NCBI GenBank assembly: GCA_965203325.1
Contig: OZ241875.1
Location: 1,024,001-1,088,000, forward strand
DNA: 64,000 nt
Direction: 5' to 3'
DNA from: a bacterium
GTDB taxonomy: Bacteria > UBA8248
Under the pieces are notes generated by a model. The model was not told the origin of the DNA. It searched no databases and saw only the letters and a list, made by a program, of their open reading frames with translations. The first letter of the stretch is position 1, and each line of letters opens with the position of its first letter. The translations under genes and the position numbers were made by a program. Positions 173-8,082 of the stretch are shown here, piece after piece.

Positions 173-3100
173 TCAGAACCGCAGGCTGAGGTCGAGCCCC
201 AGTTCGTGCTCGGGCTCGGACACGGCGCTCTCGCGCCGCTCGCCCGCCAGTTCCACGCGAAGGTCCGCGCCCCGCGCCTCGTACCGCGCACCGAGCCTGA
301 GGCGCCGGCTCTCCCCGCCGGCGAGGCCGGCTTCCGCGAACGGCGTCAGCACCCCGCCCGACGCCGTCCCGAACCCGTAGCCGACCTGCGCGTCGAGCGC
401 GCCGTCGTCGCCCGAAGCCGCCGGGTTCGGCATCTCCTCCGCCCACAGCGCCCGCGCGCCGCCCGTTCCCGCGCCCCAGCGGGGCGCGAGCGCGAAGAAC
501 AGGCCGCGGCCGCCGGCGCCCGGACCGGCGCGCACCGTCAGGCTCACGCCCCGCTCCTCCGCACCCTCCTCGCTGTGCGCCGCCAGCCACCGCCCGCGCA
601 TCTCCACCGAAACCCCGGGCGCCGCGTAGCGCACGCCGCCGGCGAGCTCGAACCCGCTGCCCTTAAGCCCGTCGCCGCCGTCGTGGCGCACCGCCGCCTC
701 CAGGAAGGGCTCCAGGCTGCTCTCGCCCGCCAGCGCGAAGCGCCGCGAGGCCTCGAGCCCCGCCCGCAGCCGCCAGCTGTCGGCGGAGAGCCCGTGGATC
801 GCGTCCGGGCCGTCATCGGTCTCCATCTGCGTGACGCTCGCGTCGGCGCGCACCGCCAGCGCCGCGCCGGCGAGTCCGCCGAGCGCACGCCTGACCCCCA
901 CCGACGCCATCCGCATCGTGAGGTCGCCGGTCTCCGCGTCCGCGTCCCCGGGCTCGTGGCGCGCCTCGCCCCAGCCCGCGCCCGCCACCGCGCGCAGCTC
1001 CAGGCCGTCCGCGAGCGTCCAGCGCCCGTAGGGATAGACCGCCGTCAGCGTCGTCTCCAGCCGGCCCCGGCCGGTGAGCGCGCCCCCGGCGAAGGAATAA
1101 TCCGCCTCGCCCGTCCCGTGGCTCACCGCGAGGCCCGCCACCCACGGGTCCGAGCGCCCGTCCACGCCCAGCCAGCCCGTGCGCAGCTTCCCGTCGTAGC
1201 GGAGCCCCGTCTCGCCGCCTCCCGCGAACGTCCCGAGGTCCCCCCGGCCCCACACCGCCCACTGCGGCGCCGCCGGGCCGGCGTCCTCCGCCGAGGCGAG
1301 ACGCACCGAGAAGGCGCTCGCGCCGAACAGGTCGGACGCCGCAAGCGCCCGGCTCTCCGTGCAGCCCGAAGCCGGCACAAGGCCGGCGGCGGCGTACCGC
1401 TCCGGCGCGCAATCGCGCAGCGCGTAGGCCGCGGCGGAACCATCGAGCGACACCGCCTGCCCGGCCAGCGTCACGCCGCTCGCGCCGATGTCGGCGAACC
1501 TGCTCCCGATGTTGTCCAGCGCGCTCGCCGTCGCCCTTCTCACCACCGCCGCCAGCGCGCGCCTCACAGCGCCCTCAACCGCCGCGCGCCGCGGGTCCGC
1601 CGCCACCGCGACCGCGAAGGTGAGCGCCGCCTCGTCGCCGTCCGCGTCCCGCACCGTCCAGGTGTAGCGCACAGGCCTCTGCGACCGCGACGGCGTGCCG
1701 CTCAGCCTCCGCGTGCCTAAGTCGAGGCTCAGCCCCGGGGGCGGGGAAGGCGCCAGGCGGTAGGTCAGCGTCCCGTCGCCGCCCGTCGCCGCCGGAAGCG
1801 CCAGCGCCGCGATCGCCGTGCCCGCCGTCCATGACTGGTCCGCGACCGCCGCGTCGCCGAACGACGGCATCAGGTTCTCCTCCACCTCGACCGTGAAGGT
1901 GAGCGCCGCCTCATCCCCGTCCGCGTCCCGCACCGTCCAGGTGTAGCGCACCGGCCCCTGCGCCGCCTCCGGCGTGCCGCTCAGCGTGCGCGCGCCTGAG
2001 TCCAGCGCCAGGCCCGAAGGCGGCTCGGGCGTCAGGCGGTAGGTCAGTGTCCCGTCGCCGCCCCTCGCCCGGGGCAGCGTCAGCGCCGTGATCGCCGTGT
2101 TCTGCTTGTACGACTGTGCGGCGACCGCCGCGGACCCGAAGCTCGGCGTCAGGTCCGGCGCTGCGCCTCCGCCGCCGCCTCCGCCGCCTACATTGCCGCC
2201 GCCTCCGCCTACATTGCCGCCGCCCCCGCCGCCGCGGTCGTCGTCCCGGATCGTAATCTGCACAGAACGCGGGCTGCCCGCCGTCACCTCAGACGGCAGC
2301 GTCCCCAGCGCCACCGTGAACGTCTCGTCGTCGGTGTCGCTGTCCTGCGCCGTGGTGATGGTCCCCGTTCCGTTGGTCGCGCCCGAGGCGATCGTGATGC
2401 CCGTCAGCGTCCCGTGGTCCTCGGGCTCGGCCGTGCCGTCGGTGATCGTCAGCGGTATCGTCACGCTGCTCGACAGCGCCGCCGACAGCGTCGCCGTCAC
2501 GGTCACGCTCGATCCCTCCGCCACCGTCGGCGAGGCCGACAGCGTCACCGTGGGCGTGGTCGTGTCCAGCGTCGCCACGGCCCCCTCGGTCGTGCCCGTC
2601 GCGTGCGCCCAGAAGCCCTTGCCGCTCGCGTTCTCCGCGCGCACCCGCACCCGGTAGGTCGTGCCGTCGTCGAGGCCCGTGATGGCCTGCGAGGCCGCCG
2701 TGCCGCTGCGGCTCACCGCCACCCATTCCGTCGCCACGTTCGTGCCCACGGCCGCGCCGGCGGCGACCGTGTTCGATGCGGTATAGTGCACGTCGTAGCC
2801 CGTCAGCGTCCCCGAGGGCGCCGTCCAGGCGAGGTCCAGCCTGCCGTCGCCGGGCGTCACCGCCAGGCCCGCCGGCGCGGCCGGCGCGTTCTGCGCATGC
2901 CGCGTGACGGTGACCGTCCAGGTCGTGTTGGCCCCCTGCCCCAGCGTCGACGACGCCACCACCTCGATGGCGTTCGCGCCGGCGTCCAGCGCGATCGCCC
3001 CGCTCGTGTCGCCGCTTGTCAGCGACACCGCGGCGGCGCCCCGCTTGCCCACCGACAGCACGTACCCCCCCAGCACGCCGACCGTCGGCCTCGCCTTCAC

Positions 3101-5257
3101 GTGCGTCACCGCGTGCGGCACCGCCGCCGTGTAGTCCGTCACGCGCGGCGAGAAGCCCGGGCTCAGCGCCAGCGCGTCGTAGCTCGCATTCTCGCCCTGC
3201 GCCTTGGTGAGCGCCAGGCCCGTCAGCAGCAGGCCCTCCGGCGTGCCCGCGCCCTCCACCCAGGGGCTCACCAGCCTTCCGCCGGCGTTGCTCGCTCGCA
3301 CCCGCACCCGGTAGCGCTGCAGGTTCCGGCCCCTGACCGTGTACGAGGTCGCCGTGGCATCGTTGTGGGGCCCGCTCGCGCGCTGGAGCGCCACCCAGCC
3401 CACGGCCTCGTCGACGCCGCGCGCGCGGGCGTCCGCCGCGACGGCGGTCGAGGTGGTGTAGTCCACCCAGTAGGCCGTCACCGTCCCCACCGGCGGCGCC
3501 GTCCACGACAGGTCCAGCTTCCCGTCGCCCGGCGTCACCGTCAGGCCGGTCGGCGCCGCGGGCGCCAGCGCGGCCTCCACCGGCGCCGTCCACACGCCCG
3601 CGGACATGCCGTCGCGCTTCACCGAGCGCACCCGCACCAGGTAGGTCTCGCCGACGGCGAGGCCCGTGAAGGTGTGGCTCGTGCCCGTCACGTCCGTGTC
3701 GGTGTTCGGCCAGGCCGCGGCCGACTTCAGCTTGCTCTGCACCTCGTAGCGCGCCACGTCCACACCCGCCGGCGCCTTCCAGCGCGCCGTCAGCTCGCGG
3801 TCTCCCGGCCTCAGCGTCAGGCCCGAGGGGACGTTCGACGTCGGCGTGCCGGTGGCGAAGACGTAAGCGCCCTCCGGGCCCGCCGTGCGCAGGCGCACCC
3901 GGTACGCCCTGCCGTTGGTCAGGCCGGTAATCGTGTACGAGGTGTCGGTGTCGTCGACATCAGCAGACACGGCCACCCAGTGCGTGGCCGCGTTCGAGCC
4001 CGAGCTCGCCGCGGCGTCGGCGACCGCGCCGGCGCCCGTCCTCGGCGCCGAGGTGTAGTCCAGCTCGTACGCCACGAAATCCCCGTCGGGCCGGGTCCAG
4101 GTTACGAGGAGCTGCGCATTGCCCGGCGTGACCGTCAGGCCGGGCAGGCCGAGCGCCTCCGGCGTGCCGGCGCCGAACGCCCAGGCGCCGTCGCCCCCGG
4201 CGCTCGTCGCCCGCACCCGCACCCGGTGGGCAGACCCGCTCGGCAATTTGCCAATCCTGTGCGAGGTCCTCGCGCCGTGACCGTTGCGGGACACCGCCAC
4301 CCAGCCAGTCGCGCCGTTGGTGCCGGCTTGCACCGCCGCGTCGTTCGCGACCGTGCCCACGGCCGCCGACGTGTAGTGCACGTCGTAGCCCGTCACCGTC
4401 CCCGGCGGCGCCGTCCACGACACGTCCAGCCGCGTCGGGCCCGGCGTGACGCGCAGACCCGTCGGCGCGGCCAGCGGCACCGCCGCGCCGTTGACGCGGA
4501 TTTTCATCGACCGACCATGAGCTTCGGCGGTCCAGGTCGACGAAGCGGTCGGCGCGGCCGATCCGTTTCGAAAGAAGTTACCTGCGTTGGCGATGCTCCA
4601 GCCGGCGGCCGCTCCGCTGTCTTCCGCATCCTTGGCGTTATGCGTGAGCTCAAAGGTGGAGAGAGTCTCGGCAGTGGTGTAAACGACCACGTGGTATTCG
4701 GTGCTCGCCGCGAGCGTGGTGCCTGCCGGTGCCGAAAAGGTGGAGGCCCTTGCGCCCGTCGCAAAGCTCGAAGGAACCGTCAGGTCCGCGAGCTTCGACC
4801 CGGGCTTGCCGCTGCTGGATGACCAAAGCTCCGCCTCGATCGTCGCAATCTGCTGCGCGGTCAGGGCGGCGGTAAAGACGTTCGTACGTATCTCGATGCT
4901 TTCGAGGGTGTAGCCGCCGCCGTTGGAGCCTGTCGTGAAGCCTTGAGCGCGGGCGAATACTCTGGCCGTTTGCAGGTTATCTAACCCCGTCTGCCCGATG
5001 TTGCTCACCAACACATCGGCGGCGGCCGGGGCGGCGGCGAACGGGGAGAGCGCCGCAAGCAGCAGCGCGAGGACGGGAAGGAGACGGAAGCGGCGGGCGC
5101 GGGGGCGCCCGGTGCGCGGCTCAGGCTTGCGCCCGGAACCTGGCCGGGAATGCGGGACGCCGTTCGGGCCGCTCGTGCCGCCCTTTTCTTCGGATGACGG
5201 ATGACGGACCATGCCGCCCCCGGTTGCAAGCCTCTCCATGCGATGTCTCATTTTCAT
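173..5257 (-). CDS. Large autotransporter adhesin: long signal peptide, N-terminal tip domain, 5 fibronectin type III domains, cadherin-like, Calx-beta-like, 2 Ig-like repeats, C-terminal beta-barrel
   Basis: Hydrophobic LLPVLALLLAALSPFAAAPAAA-DVLVSN signal; repeated APTGLxVTPGDGxLDLxWTAP...GYDVHYT...YRVRVRA Fn3 motif; two TLPxAxGGDGTLTYRL...YTWTVRDADGDEAALTF repeats; WAVWGRGD barrel start; C-terminal LDLSLRF beta-signal. Confidence 0.9.
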   Translation of the reverse strand: MKMRHRMERLATGGGMVRHPSSEEKGGTSGPNGVPHSRPGSGRKPEPRTGRPRARRFRLLPVLALLLAALSPFAAAPAAADVLVSNIGQTGLDNLQTARVFARAQGFTTGSNGGGYTLESIEIRTNVFTAALTAQQIATIEAELWSSSSGKPGSKLADLTVPSSFATGARASTFSAPAGTTLAASTEYHVVVYTTAETLSTFELTHNAKDAEDSGAAAGWSIANAGNFFRNGSAAPTASSTWTAEAHGRSMKIRVNGAAVPLAAPTGLRVTPGPTRLDVSWTAPPGTVTGYDVHYTSAAVGTVANDAAVQAGTNGATGWVAVSRNGHGARTSHRIGKLPSGSAHRVRVRATSAGGDGAWAFGAGTPEALGLPGLTVTPGNAQLLVTWTRPDGDFVAYELDYTSAPRTGAGAVADAAASSGSNAATHWVAVSADVDDTDTSYTITGLTNGRAYRVRLRTAGPEGAYVFATGTPTSNVPSGLTLRPGDRELTARWKAPAGVDVARYEVQSKLKSAAAWPNTDTDVTGTSHTFTGLAVGETYLVRVRSVKRDGMSAGVWTAPVEAALAPAAPTGLTVTPGDGKLDLSWTAPPVGTVTAYWVDYTTSTAVAADARARGVDEAVGWVALQRASGPHNDATATSYTVRGRNLQRYRVRVRASNAGGRLVSPWVEGAGTPEGLLLTGLALTKAQGENASYDALALSPGFSPRVTDYTAAVPHAVTHVKARPTVGVLGGYVLSVGKRGAAAVSLTSGDTSGAIALDAGANAIEVVASSTLGQGANTTWTVTVTRHAQNAPAAPAGLAVTPGDGRLDLAWTAPSGTLTGYDVHYTASNTVAAGAAVGTNVATEWVAVSRSGTAASQAITGLDDGTTYRVRVRAENASGKGFWAHATGTTEGAVATLDTTTPTVTLSASPTVAEGSSVTVTATLSAALSSSVTIPLTITDGTAEPEDHGTLTGITIASGATNGTGTITTAQDSDTDDETFTVALGTLPSEVTAGSPRSVQITIRDDDRGGGGGGNVGGGGGNVGGGGGGGGAAPDLTPSFGSAAVAAQSYKQNTAITALTLPRARGGDGTLTYRLTPEPPSGLALDSGARTLSGTPEAAQGPVRYTWTVRDADGDEAALTFTVEVEENLMPSFGDAAVADQSWTAGTAIAALALPAATGGDGTLTYRLAPSPPPGLSLDLGTRRLSGTPSRSQRPVRYTWTVRDADGDEAALTFAVAVAADPRRAAVEGAVRRALAAVVRRATASALDNIGSRFADIGASGVTLAGQAVSLDGSAAAYALRDCAPERYAAAGLVPASGCTESRALAASDLFGASAFSVRLASAEDAGPAAPQWAVWGRGDLGTFAGGGETGLRYDGKLRTGWLGVDGRSDPWVAGLAVSHGTGEADYSFAGGALTGRGRLETTLTAVYPYGRWTLADGLELRAVAGAGWGEARHEPGDADAETGDLTMRMASVGVRRALGGLAGAALAVRADASVTQMETDDGPDAIHGLSADSWRLRAGLEASRRFALAGESSLEPFLEAAVRHDGGDGLKGSGFELAGGVRYAAPGVSVEMRGRWLAAHSEEGAEERGVSLTVRAGPGAGGRGLFFALAPRWGAGTGGARALWAEEMPNPAASGDDGALDAQVGYGFGTASGGVLTPFAEAGLAGGESRRLRLGARYEARGADLRVELAGERRESAVSEPEHELGLDLSLRF
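2184..2225. repeat. 21-bp tandem repeat (x2) within a poly-Gly linker of the autotransporter
   Basis: ccgcctacattgccgccgcct / ccgcctacattgccgccgccc, encoding GGGGGNV x2 on the minus strand. Confidence 0.85.
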
Positions 5258-5504
5258 TTTCCGGGTCCTTCCCTCTGGTGGAATCCTCAGAGCCGAACAA
5301 AGATGCGAATCCGCCTGATATTCGCCATGCTTCCGCCGGGGACCGCCCGGCGGACGTGCCGGGCGACCCCCTGGAGGAAACCGCTACTGCCGGTTCGCCG
5401 TATCCCGGGCAGCTCGAAATACGGTAGACTTGCGGACTCGCAGTCCGGGCCGGTGGTTCCGCGAGACAAGAATCCCTGCGGTATGCGCCCACCTCGAACC
5501 CGGG

Positions 5505-5538
5505 CTGGTGTCCGCTAATTGCCGTTATTGGCCCCCAG
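5505..5538. repeat. Left putative tyrosine-recombinase site (loxP-like, 13+8+13 bp)
   Basis: ctggtgtccgcta-attgccgt-tattggcccccag has imperfect palindromic arms around an asymmetric core. 5505-5528 is a 22/24 inverted repeat of 5694-5717. Confidence 0.7.
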
Positions 5539-5660
5539 AAGCCTTGTTTTCCGCCGAAAAACCCGTTTCGGGGGGCATTCGGGCCGCAAATGAGCGAAAG
5601 GTGAGCGAAAAAAGGCGCAAAACGGCGCCCGAAACCCCTCCGGGGACCCCGGAATTGCGC

Positions 5661-5688
5661 TTGACATGGCCGTGAGAGGTGTTAAATT
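5661..5688 (+). promoter_or_regulatory. Sigma70-type promoter inside the putative invertible segment
   Basis: TTGACA (5661-5666), 16-bp spacer, TAAATT (5683-5688), with an extended -10 TG at 5680-5681. An AT-rich patch in otherwise GC-rich DNA. Confidence 0.7.
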
Positions 5689-5717
5689 TTCTGATAACGG
5701 CAATTATCGGACTCCAG
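5684..5717. repeat. Right putative tyrosine-recombinase site, core inverted relative to the left site
   Basis: aaattttctgata-acggcaat-tatcggactccag; the core ACGGCAAT is the reverse complement of the left core ATTGCCGT; TCtGATAA/TTATCgGA dyad. Confidence 0.7.
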
Positions 5718-5825
5718 AAACCCGCCGTTTCGCCGGTATTCCCCTGCGAAACGGCTTTTTTTGTGGAAATTCCCCGTCGTCGTCTATATTTGGTAATCGA
5801 CGAGGCCCTGGAGCGGCCTCAGGGA

Positions 5826-6022
5826 ATGGAAACGGCCGCCGATCTGGCGAAGGCGTCGATGTCTGAGAACACGCGGCGGGCGTACGGGACGGCGCTCAGG
5901 GTATTCGAGCGCTCGGGAAACCCCGAGACCGACGCCGGGATAGCGGCGTACCTGGGGGATCTCTACGAGGGGGGCACTCGGCGGCCGTGGCCGCGATGGC
6001 GAGGCTGCGCTACGGGCGGTGA
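5826..6022 (+). pseudogene. Cre-like tyrosine recombinase remnant (N-terminal core-binding domain, frameshift, apparent large internal deletion)
   Basis: METAADLAKASMSENTRRAYGTALRVFERSGNPETDAGIAAYLGDLYE resembles the integrase SAM-like N-terminus (S.NTRRAY...AAYL). After the G6 run (5969-5974) another frame continues GHSAAVAAMARLRYGR-stop. No catalytic domain. Confidence 0.7.
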
Positions 6023-6110
6023 GGTCCGCCCGGCGTTTCGTCGTGAGCATGTCCTTCGCGGCGGGCAGGTCCGCCGCGTGCAGGACGCCCGTCTTCTCCC
6101 GAATATCTCT

Positions 6111-6821
6111 CTACCGCCTCTTCTTTCTCCGGGCGGCTCTCTCCTCGGACGTGGAAGTCCATCTCCGCGCGGAGGCCCACTTCTCGAGGTCTTCGAGCAG
6201 GTAGCGCACCCGGTATCCGGTGCGAAGAAAATCCGGCCCCTCTCCGCTCACGCGGTAGCGCTCCAGCGTCTTGGGCGAGAGGCCGAGCCAGGCGGCCGCC
6301 TCCCGCGTGTTCAGGTGGTTCTCCTCCGTGCGCTCATCGGCGTCCCCGGGTTCCACGGCGGCGTCCCACGTCCCGTCGAACGGATCGGGCAAGTCCGCGA
6401 GCCTCTCGCGTATAACGCGGATTTCCTCTCGCGTCGCGTTGGCCGCCATCCAGGCGCGCACCCGGTCGAAGGTCTTGAGATACGGCGAGGCGCCCCGGCG
6501 CAGCCGCCCCACGAAGGAGGGATTCCCCACGGCCTCCTCGCCCAGGATCGAGACCTTGGTCCTGCTCACCGCGAGGAACGCCTCGACCTCGGCCCGCAGG
6601 AGCGGTCCCAGGGGCGGATACCCCATGAACGCGAGCACCCGGTCCGCCGTGTCGACCCGCAGGGGCCGCCCCCGGGCCTGCAGTCCCACGAAGCCGGGAA
6701 TGCCCAGCGCGCCCACCCCGAAGCGCCTCGCGCTCATCCCTCGGCGCGCGCGCCAGAGCGCAATGCTCCGGCGCATTCGCTCGTCCAGCGGGGTGCCGGT
6801 ATCGTCGTCGAACGCGGTCAT
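6111..6821 (-). CDS. DNA-binding protein: two tandem Cro/XRE-like HTH repeats plus C-terminal excisionase/AlpA-like (HTH_17) domain
   Basis: Repeats GMSARRFGVGALGIPGFV...RVDTADRVLAFM and TKVSILGEEAVGNPSFV...YLKTFDRVRAWM; C-terminal LNTREAAAWLGLSPKTLERYRVSGEGPDFLRTGYRVRYLLEDLEKW. Confidence 0.85.
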   Translation of the reverse strand: MTAFDDDTGTPLDERMRRSIALWRARRGMSARRFGVGALGIPGFVGLQARGRPLRVDTADRVLAFMGYPPLGPLLRAEVEAFLAVSRTKVSILGEEAVGNPSFVGRLRRGASPYLKTFDRVRAWMAANATREEIRVIRERLADLPDPFDGTWDAAVEPGDADERTEENHLNTREAAAWLGLSPKTLERYRVSGEGPDFLRTGYRVRYLLEDLEKWASARRWTSTSEERAARRKKRR

Positions 6822-7059
6822 GGCGCGCGAACATAAGGAAAGGACGAGCGCCCGTTCAATCGTTGTTTCTAGCGCAGAAGGTACACCCGGGAAGAGTCCG
6901 CGAGCGCGTCCGTGCGCGGGTCGCTCATCGGTTCAGCCTGAAATCAAGGGGGTTTTCCGGAAAACGAGGGTCGCTAGAGAACGTGCAGCGAGGCGCTGCG
7001 GAAAAAAAGGAAAGACGCCGCCCCCCGGGCGAGAGCTCGAAAACCTCTTTCGTTCACGC

Positions 7060-7187
7060 CGCAGTGGGCTGTTTCGCGAGTCGTCCCTGCGAATGACCGG
7101 CGATTGGCGGCGCCCGGCGAGTTGCATCTCGACCGGAGAAGCCCCTGCCATGGCAAGGCGCTGCGCGCTGCCCGTGCGCAGGTCGAA
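7060..7187 (-). pseudogene. Degenerate catalytic box II fragment of a Cre-like tyrosine recombinase
   Basis: FDLRTGSAQRLAMAGASPVEMQLAGRRQSPVIRRDD aligns without gaps to Cre HSARVGAARDMARAGVSIPEIMQAGGWTNVNIVMNY. The His, Trp and nucleophile Tyr positions are mutated (F, R, D). Confidence 0.7.
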
Positions 7188-7344
7188 ACGGCGCCGATTT
7201 CCTTGTTTCATTCGTTTTTATCGCATCGTATGCTGATGTTCCGGGTCGTCCGCCGAATACAATACGGCCAAGCCGAAACAGGCGGACATTCCTTCGTGGA
7301 TTGTATGCCAACGGCCCGGATTCTGGAGGACATATAAAATATCC

Positions 7345-7387
7345 GGCCGGGCAGGCGGGGCGCAGCAATGCCTCCGCCTACCCGGCC
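7345..7387 (-). terminator. GC-rich hairpin, possible terminator on minus strand
   Basis: Minus strand ggccgggtaggcgg(a)ggc / gccccgcctgcccggcc, followed by ggatattttata. Confidence 0.5.
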
Positions 7388-7410
7388 TGCCACCCCAGTA
7401 ATCATTCTCT

Positions 7411-7638
7411 CATGGGGTGATGAGCATCAAAAATTCGCCGACCCGAATCGGATACGCCGTGCCATACCAACAACTGCCTCTGAGCCTTGTGGTATTATCA
7501 CCCTGCCAACGAACGATTTACCGGTCTTGTAAACGTTCGGCGGCAGGGTGATAATTTAGTCGATGCCGGAGACATTTGTAGGAATTGCACGGTGTAGCTA
7601 GCTTCAGTTGGTGTTTTCCAGTTCCTAATCACCCCACG
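7411..7638. ncRNA. Candidate structured non-coding RNA of unknown class
   Basis: Ends pair (7413-7421 tggggtgat / 7628-7636 atcacccca); long central hairpin 7494-7555 with a 14-bp perfect base; further helices 7453-7462/7587-7596, 7579-7587/7619-7627 and 7423-7430/7560-7567; no credible ORF. Confidence 0.5.
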
Positions 7639-8082
7639 ACCGAACGTATACCCGGTCTTCGACGACTCGCGCCCCCTGGGATGCTCCGGGGTTGTACTGA
7701 GGCCGCTTGCGTTTTGATTACATTTATTTCAAGGAATTTATAACTGGCTTGAAAACAATGATTTAATTTTCATATTCTGGATAATACGATAAATACCGAT
7801 AAATTAACGGGGTTTTTCGATAAATAGCTGACAATTTTTTTCTCGGGAAATGACGCCGCGGAATCCGGGCGCAGGGGAATCCTGCCACAGTCTGCGACTC
7901 CATCGATGACGGCAAATGCGCGCAAATGCGGGGATTTTCGCACCCTCACCGCTCAGGCCGGCTCCCGGGCGATCAAAAACGTCTTTCATTTTTTCACAAG
8001 CGATATATTGTTGTAATTCAATAGCTTAGGAGGCCGGATTCCGCCGCCGGGAAACAGTCCATAGCGAGGCAGCCCGGTTTGG

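Follow-up and report, generated by a model that had tools for sequence, protein, structure and literature searches.

Phase variation of promoters is a familiar phenomenon in gut bacteria and pathogens. In the fimS system of the Escherichia coli type 1 fimbriae a promoter segment lies between inverted repeats and is flipped by the adjacently encoded FimB and FimE, which turns the adhesin operon on or off, and in Bacteroides fragilis the serine recombinase Mpi brings about polysaccharide promoter inversions, acting in trans on many promoters. Tyrosine recombinases such as Cre, FLP and the Xer enzymes invert, and do not delete, the DNA between inverted sites with asymmetric spacers. According to the respective reports, RecV of Clostridioides difficile acts in trans on many invertible promoters for surface structures (PMC8890394, PMC7446863), the tyrosine recombinase Xer1 of Mycoplasma varies the multigene vpma/vsp family of surface lipoproteins (PMC5634654), and Cre-type enzymes are defined by the catalytic set R-K-H-R-W-Y and have their sites directly beside their genes (PMC10250229). 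Here, we analyzed a 64-kb stretch (G000:C1:1024001-1088000, in the following the window) of a bacterial genome that is assembled as a single contig of 4.39 Mb. At positions 5505–5717 of the window, next to the gene of a large autotransporter adhesin, lies a 213-bp element consisting of a predicted promoter between two inverted lox-like sites. This element is, with high probability, a phase switch based on site-specific recombination (an inverton), one of 16 in the genome (nine at adhesin and seven at lipoprotein genes), whose inversion would be catalyzed in trans.

The element resembles fimS in that a short, promoter-bearing invertible segment, a tyrosine recombinase and the control of an adjacent adhesin would come together. 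In contrast to FimB and FimE, however, the recombinase has Cre as its nearest solved relative, the 9-bp repeats of fimS are replaced by 34-bp lox-like dyads, 16 switches are found instead of one, and recombinase and regulated gene are divergent. With Cre/loxP of phage P1, Dre/rox and Vika/vox the element has in common that the site spans about 34 bp, that its inverted arms enclose an asymmetric spacer, and that it is located beside the recombinase gene. The known systems of the Cre type function in the maintenance of phages or plasmids and have single sites or direct repeats of them, whereas the sites described here form inverted pairs around a chromosomal promoter, 16 times over; furthermore, one of the four arms is degenerate and the spacer centre is diversified between loci. 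As for RecV and Mpi, one or few recombinases would serve many invertible promoters of surface structures, but here six paralogous recombinase genes each stand beside a switch and are accompanied by decayed copies, the enzymes fall into the Cre clade, the spacers co-vary per locus, and the host is an uncultured environmental lineage and not a gut bacterium. Mycoplasma Xer1 moves a single promoter among silent genes through inversions between sites that flank the genes, whereas here each gene would possess its private flip-flop promoter. In the literature search no description of invertible promoters in sponge-associated or similar uncultured marine lineages was found, and no case of a Cre-clade enzyme acting as promoter invertase; PMC10250229 does not contain the string 'phase varia'.

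A 24-nt inverted repeat around the promoter had already been claimed in the initial annotation. The repeat search located its arms at 5505–5528 and 5694–5717 (22 of 24 positions, i.e. 92%, complementary; 165 nt between the arms) and ranked this pair top within 4800–6800. The 13-mer site core occurs twice in the window at ≤1 mismatch, compared with an expectation of 0.04 and with two or more occurrences in 0 of 100 shuffles. The repeat is the core of two inverted 34-bp sites, whose coordinates are collected together with those of all other features in Table 1. Each site can be parsed as a dyad of a 14-nt arm, a 6-nt asymmetric spacer and a second 14-nt arm; the loxP-like 13+8+13 parse proposed earlier is equally valid, and the asymmetric, oppositely oriented cores on which that proposal relied were recovered as TTGCCG and CGGCAA. 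The left site of the window reads CTGGTGTCCGCTAA-TTGCCG-TTATTGGCCCCCAG and the right site AAATTTTCTGATAA-CGGCAA-TTATCGGACTCCAG. Three of the four arms fit the consensus CTGGnGnCCGnTAA, the two arms of the left site forming a 10/14 dyad. The exception is the inner arm of the right site, which retains just the 7–8 spacer-proximal bases (CTGATAA) and overlaps the −10 and start region of the promoter, its distal part being the −10 region itself. Overall, each site comprises about 34 bp with two inverted arms of 13–14 bp and an asymmetric spacer of 6–8 bp, and the pair bounds a short segment with a predicted outward-facing promoter near one end, as in an inverton. This promoter, TTGACA-N16-TAAATT with an upstream TG, was detected by the consensus scan between the arms, where it had been reported before, and is the only sigma-70-like site on either strand of 5000–6500 (0.2 ± 0.5 in shuffled sequences).

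The stretch 5480–5780 is present in 16 genomic copies (c01–c16, the window copy being c02) of 82–100% identity. All 16 elements have a length of exactly 213 bp between the outer edges of their sites and contain no indel, the −35 hexamer TTGACA and its surroundings are invariant in all of them, and a degenerate 20-nt site pattern occurs 32 times in the 4.39 Mb, without exception as 16 pairs spaced 179 bp start to start. Thirteen of the copies share the orientation of the window. In the other three (c09, c12 and c15) the stretch equal to 5505–5717 lies on the strand opposite to both collinear flanks. For c04 and c06 a single flank was detected by blast, and both flanks are covered in the alignment. 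As judged from the alignment and the site table, the flip junctions of c09, c12 and c15 fall inside the site cores: the left site of a flipped copy is composed of the usual outer arm and the inner arm normally belonging to the right site, and the right site is its reciprocal. Further sites, which the initial annotation had suggested looking for, and inverted alleles, whose absence it had named as speaking against its proposal, are both present, the latter at three of 16 paralogues and as flipped switches in other genomes (G012 and L082, see below). Its restriction of the switch to the one adhesin does not hold, the 16-member family also adjoining lipoprotein genes.

Being multi-copy and bounded by inverted repeats, the element might alternatively be a miniature inverted-repeat transposable element (MITE) that was inserted either way round, or the repeats might be the arms of a conserved RNA or DNA hairpin, with no site-specific inversion in either case. 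Such an origin is hardly credible. The repeated unit extends past the repeats on both sides, namely by a leader of about 60–100 nt to the left and, to the right, by the terminator, the recombinase gene or its remnant, a convergent HTH_17 gene and further sequence up to about 7528, and these flanks remain collinear when the interior is reversed. No direct duplication of a target site lies next to the ends, and all 16 copies occupy the same conserved context. Furthermore, the sites occur solely as the 16 equidistant pairs, always before surface-protein genes, and a cognate Cre-like gene is adjacent, distant genomes included.

The spacers provide a further line of evidence. Their last four bases take eight different values among the 16 loci, yet at 15 of the 16 loci the left and the right site carry the same four bases. 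When the partners were permuted, a mean of 2.6 and a maximum of 11 matches resulted, and 15 matches were reached in 0 of 100,000 permutations. Agreeing spacers, of 11 types, were also seen in 26 further site pairs from other genomes, a set that is not an independent test of spacer agreement, as the screen pre-required ≤1 mismatch in the 13-nt core. For the hairpin explanation, left/right agreement could reflect selection for base-pairing. However, fixed, uncompensated differences between left and right arms coexist with the perfectly matched spacers, a combination that is compatible with recombinase sites but would not be produced by a base-paired helix. Matched spacers at a distance of 179 bp, flanked by uncompensated arms, are what would be predicted for a strand exchange that depends on spacer homology, and the matching could be upheld by selection or by heteroduplex correction during the exchange.

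The sole switch with disagreeing spacers is c14 (GCCG versus GCCA, at G000:C1:3371526 and 3371705; L034), and this copy may be naturally locked, provided that the spacer-homology rule applies. This locus (G000:C1:3366012-3373367) and the window region from about −700 to 7400 are recent segmental duplicates, 97.7% identical over 5.5 kb. The two copies are without a single difference in 5211–5691; the first ones appear at 5692 and 5698, within the inner arm and the spacer of the right site, and farther to the right the copies diverge much more strongly (38 differences in 5811–6010). The position of this similarity breakpoint at a site core suggests an inter-locus exchange or a gene conversion ending at the lox-like site.

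As assembled, the window copy is in the OFF state, as stated in the initial annotation, for the promoter points away from the adhesin gene. The further statement that it aims at the recombinase is correct with respect to the rightward direction, but probably not with respect to recombinase expression, since a strong predicted terminator intervenes. The fold of 5695–5775 has −29.7 kcal/mol (z = −4.06; 0 of 200 shuffles equally stable), and the alignment shows hairpin and T-run to be retained in most copies. The predicted transcript start, at about 5695, lies inside the right site with the terminator hairpin some 30 nt downstream, so that in the OFF state the promoter would probably yield a short, terminated RNA (about 70 nt), and the recombinase gene would be reached by some read-through at most. 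A terminator-like hairpin on the minus strand of the segment interior faces the adhesin side and would, in the same state, block leftward read-through and shield the adhesin gene. After inversion (ON state), the promoter would face left, and transcription would pass the left site and the conserved leader before entering the gene of the 1694-aa adhesin. On the minus strand of 5000–5505 the scan detected neither a terminator-like nor another promoter-like site. It is also plausible, given the overlap of the degenerate arm with the −10 and start region, that recombinase bound at this arm could occlude the promoter, which would amount to autoregulation.

A second minus-strand terminator at about 5556–5575 was considered and dropped, its stem measuring 4–6 bp only and the scan having made no call. 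For a hairpin in the leader we obtained z = −2.26, with 5 of 200 shuffles equally stable, and co-variation judged by eye gave no clear signal.

The promoter faces right at 13 of the 16 loci and its predicted start about 30 nt ahead of a strong terminator would yield a discrete short RNA, which raises the question of whether the switch mainly governs rightward output, that is, this RNA (about 70 nt) or transcription continuing into the recombinase and HTH genes, with the adhesin being controlled separately. This is very improbable in our view: constant at all 16 loci are the leftward surface-protein gene and the conserved leader, whereas the gene to the right is intact at six and absent at three of them, and no other promoter-like site was found upstream of the adhesin gene.

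Intact recombinases with a PF00589 domain are encoded to the right of six switches (c01, c04, c05, c07, c09 and c11). By tblastn the genome contains exactly six full-length copies, all beside switches, which are 78–95% identical to the c09 protein and adjoin sites with the same arm sequences as those of the window. Among the sequence matches to the Protein Data Bank (PDB), 17 of 19 were Cre or its engineered variant Tre, the best phmmer match reaching 1.4e-12 in comparison with 2.6e-05 for XerA. The alignment pairs the catalytic residues R, K, H-x-x-R, W and Y of Cre, and also the C-terminal GAMxRL, with their counterparts (LLRVSE/LLRIAE, SKTDQ/TKTLV, GHSLRVG/GHSARVG, GRW/GGW and GRY/MNY). The full set (R173, K201, H289, R292, W315 and Y324 of Cre) is present in the intact paralogues and not in the remnant in the window; across 16 aligned homologues R, H, R, W and Y are invariant and K is conserved in ≥90%. 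For a structure model built on 16 homologues (mean predicted local distance difference test score, pLDDT, 82.1), the top Foldseek match was the Cre chain 4crx_A (E = 7.2e-15; template-modelling score, TM, 0.71 over 305 columns), and XerA appeared first at rank 31. Evidently, Cre is the closest relative by sequence and by predicted fold over both domains, which supports the earlier designation of the recombinase as Cre-like. An assignment to the FimB/FimE-type DNA invertases was rejected, the scores being 21.7 bits for NF007371 (cut-off 222) and 17.8 bits for NF007370 (cut-off 221). The site-specific recombinase would be supplied by the six intact paralogues: a Cre-like enzyme would bind the arms, pair both sites and exchange strands within the asymmetric 6-bp spacer, whose identity within a locus would permit the exchange, and the segment would flip.

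The recombinase gene of the window itself is dead. The remnant begins 109 nt to the right of the repeat, in agreement with the distance of about 110 bp given before, and has suffered both an internal deletion and a frameshift. About 660 bp were lost at a GCGATGGCG microhomology (5993–6001), so that the reading jumps from ...AAVAAMA to ...RLRYGR-stop, and the G tract at 5969–5974 consists of six G where the intact copies have seven. A single deletion junction is common to all seven remnant loci (c02, c03, c08, c10, c14, c15 and c16), for which one deletion followed by duplication of the module would be the simplest history. In order to flip, the window locus therefore needs a paralogue acting in trans. 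The flipped copy c15 is a remnant-only locus, and the flipped copy c12 has no recombinase gene alongside; since c15 carries the shared remnant junction, at least one inversion took place in a lineage without a working local recombinase. Together with the common arms, this argues for an action of the paralogous recombinases in trans, and switching in the window would be catalyzed by one of the six intact paralogues.

The poly-G tract has six G in c02, c10 and c15 and seven in c08, c14, c16 and the intact c09. Seven G keep the deletion remnant in frame, which would encode a mini-protein of an estimated 65–70 aa.

Several points weigh against the proposed switch. The local recombinase is dead, and trans action is deduced from a comparison of loci; the microhomology at the junction could in principle have been hit more than once, which weakens the argument for trans action. 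The one-base spacer mismatch at the twin locus c14 indicates that individual switches decay. Promoter, terminators and start site were all predicted, by consensus scans and by folding. As the assembly represents the consensus of a population, the 13 versus three orientations are majority states and not switching rates. For the window locus no flipped molecule was seen: public Logan contigs end at the left site (5521, 5518 and 5528) and no strand-switch joint is listed among them. These short contigs are uninformative either way, because the sequence shared with the paralogue c03 starts at about 5492 and paralogous copies merge in the assembly graph, so that breaks near 5520 are expected.

From the dead remnant, the decay of c14 and the lack of a flipped molecule among the contigs one might conclude that the family is real but the window copy a locked relic, with the paralogues acting mainly in cis and the adhesin silent or read from elsewhere. 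We consider this unlikely, though clearly the most serious of the alternatives. Both sites of the window are intact, with identical spacers and with arms like those beside intact recombinases, c15 and c12 were flipped with a remnant only and with no recombinase gene, respectively, and the intact 1694-aa open reading frame (ORF) does not fit a long-term silence. While contigs at the window locus break at the repeat, both orientations are present in the family, among the 16 paralogues as well as in relatives. Thus, the window element is a real member of a well-supported family of invertible promoters, found in its OFF state beside a dead local recombinase, and a switch operated in trans remains the reading that we prefer.

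On the left side, a large ORF in leftward orientation, 316–1822 aa long, is found next to every one of the 16 switches. In the window this is the Fn3 autotransporter adhesin placed by the initial annotation about 250 bp away on the minus strand; its ORF starts 248 nt left of the repeat. The passenger contains fn3, He_PIG and Cadherin-like domains, and the C-terminal 330 aa match PF03797 (5.8e-12, 46.3 bits; cut-off 26) and TIGR01414 (22.8 bits; cut-off 16). Nine of the candidate regulated genes encode adhesin-like proteins, which contain Cadherin-like, Calx-beta or fn3 domains and have a signal-peptide region in common. Their C-termini are related within c02 and c14 and within c01, c09, c10 and c15, with an aromatic last residue, and differ in c03, c08 and c16. 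The other seven ORFs (c04–c07 and c11–c13) had no Pfam match at 1e-05, carry a lipoprotein signal ...LTLAGCGGGGG and have related C-termini ending in ...GAFG..KQ. These lipoproteins (L024–L027 and L031–L033) measure 316–1068 aa and have a poly-G linker after the lipobox; over the signal region of those at c07 and c12 sub-threshold matches to the NCBIfam model 'invert_tail' (NF058595) were noted.

In other genomes, element DNA was found in 12 of 40 searched, including 11 of 22 from the same genus. The closest related species (G012) has about 17 copies, of which two, one of them L118, are flipped by the same criterion. The copies c01–c16 could not be matched to orthologues in G012, the left genes being too divergent and the modules too mosaic for an assignment. 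When the c09 recombinase was used for a protein-guided scan, 105 relatives were confirmed, of which 80 loci with 30–95% identity were kept. The metagenome-assembled genomes (MAGs) concerned are titled 'bacterium' or Nitrospinota, Candidatus Entotheonella, Candidatus Binatia, Dehalococcoidia, Tectimicrobiota, Latescibacterota, Poribacteria, Longimicrobiales, Acidobacteria and others, a cross-phylum spread that rests on record titles, with MAG labels and binning possibly wrong. The layout of gene, switch and recombinase recurs in congeneric species and in MAGs that bear the labels of other phyla. At L067–L073, L077–L079, L083, L085, L118 and L129 a lox-like core lies about 40–70 nt upstream of the recombinase gene and its inverted partner 140–180 nt further upstream, at L081 the pair lies about 150 nt upstream of the gene, and at L094–L096 about 260 nt separate the partners, which are located about 200 nt upstream of it. 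Inside the pair at L094, in a MAG labelled Latescibacterota, lies TTGACA-17-TAAATT, which points towards a leftward ORF comprising at least 752 aa. Among nine pairs that were oriented by the recombinase gene, seven aim the promoter at the recombinase and two away from it, namely L118 and L082, the latter from another species. With the leader motif, only 11 of the 29 site pairs from other genomes could be classified as ON or OFF. Inverted repeats without a lox-like core (for example at L074, L076, L100 and L103) were treated as chance; the repeat finder (20 nt, ≤4 mismatches) was applied to the 80 related loci and is expected, by our own estimate, to return about 0.1 chance pair per locus.

With regard to the habitat, sequencing runs labelled 'sponge metagenome' contain 0.07–0.28 of the sampled words, and several of the labelled taxa are sponge symbionts, which together hint at a sponge-associated life. 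We tentatively suggest, giving it a little less than an even chance, that a portable cassette of a Cre-like invertase and a lox-bounded promoter spread among unrelated, probably sponge-associated phyla and was multiplied in the present genome into a combinatorial system of 16 surface-protein switches with a trans-acting recombinase pool and the spacer as locus address. The four-nucleotide spacer centre would then direct each exchange to the locus's own promoter and limit inter-locus recombination that would scramble the chromosome.

Beyond the remnant, the repeated module of the window contains an HTH_17 gene and a second recombinase fragment (Table 1). A homologue of the HTH_17 protein (239 aa) follows the recombinase or its remnant in c01, c03, c07, c09 and c11. 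Its role as a general partner was dismissed, as tblastn among the 80 related loci returned just five loci of the closest relative. The second fragment, comprising 30 residues, has W replaced by R in the catalytic region and is kept in the module at several loci. Two small ORFs within the element, 5430–5675 (+) and 5515–5703 (−), gave no Pfam match and were judged GC-rich noise. The Rfam scan of 4500–7500 at E ≤ 1 yielded no match on the element; a weak match to sRNA-Xcc1 (27.6 bits compared with a gathering score of 53, E = 0.062) was noted at 7240–7328 (+), inside the repeated module and right of the HTH gene. At c06 a DDE transposase of insertion-sequence type (DUF772 / DDE_Tnp_1; L026:2910-4355, +) takes the place of the recombinase module. 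At c10 a lambda-type integrase of 388 aa (Arm-DNA-bind_3 and Phage_integrase; L030:2809-3975, +) follows just past the truncated module, which suggests an integrated element adjoining that locus. A separate short repeat at 7775–7940 of the window has about 35 further genomic copies (55–165 nt matched, 72–95% identity).

Table 1 Features of the switch locus and its surroundings in window coordinates; promoter, leader and terminators are predicted.
Feature	Position	Strand	Description
Autotransporter adhesin gene	173..5257	-	1694 aa, signal peptide, barrel ending in F; ORF, translation, Pfam
Leader (putative 5' untranslated region in the ON state)	5258..5504	-	about 5440-5504, beside the left site, conserved in other copies; left-flank matches at 15/16
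Left 34-bp lox-like site	5505..5538		outer arm 5505-5518, spacer TTGCCG 5519-5524, inner arm 5525-5538
Interior of the invertible segment (145 bp)	5539..5683		minus-strand terminator-like hairpin with T-run, stem 5630-5613 (terminator scan)
Predicted outward-facing promoter TTGACA-N16-(TG)TAAATT	5661..5688	+	consensus scan; points right, away from the adhesin gene
Right 34-bp site	5684..5717		degenerate inner arm 5684-5697, spacer CGGCAA 5698-5703, outer arm 5704-5717
Predicted intrinsic terminator	5724..5762	+	10-bp GC-rich stem and U7, between switch and recombinase remnant
Dead Cre-like tyrosine recombinase remnant	5826..6022	+	first ~50 codons, original last codons and stop (6020-6022)
236-aa protein with C-terminal excisionase-type helix-turn-helix (HTH_17)	6111..6821	-	PF12728, 9.1e-08; part of the repeated module
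Second Cre-like recombinase fragment	7093..7182	-	equals residues ~260-289; 22/30 identical, E = 3e-11

Provided that the switches are active, any subset of the 16 large surface proteins, several of them built from animal-like Fn3, cadherin and Calx-beta modules, could be displayed by the bacterium, which would bear directly on the recognition and tolerance of symbionts by an animal host. The co-variation of the spacers per locus represents a natural experiment on the spacer-homology rule of Cre-type recombination, and the family as a whole offers many naturally paired recombinases and sites with varied spacers, which may be of use for genome engineering.

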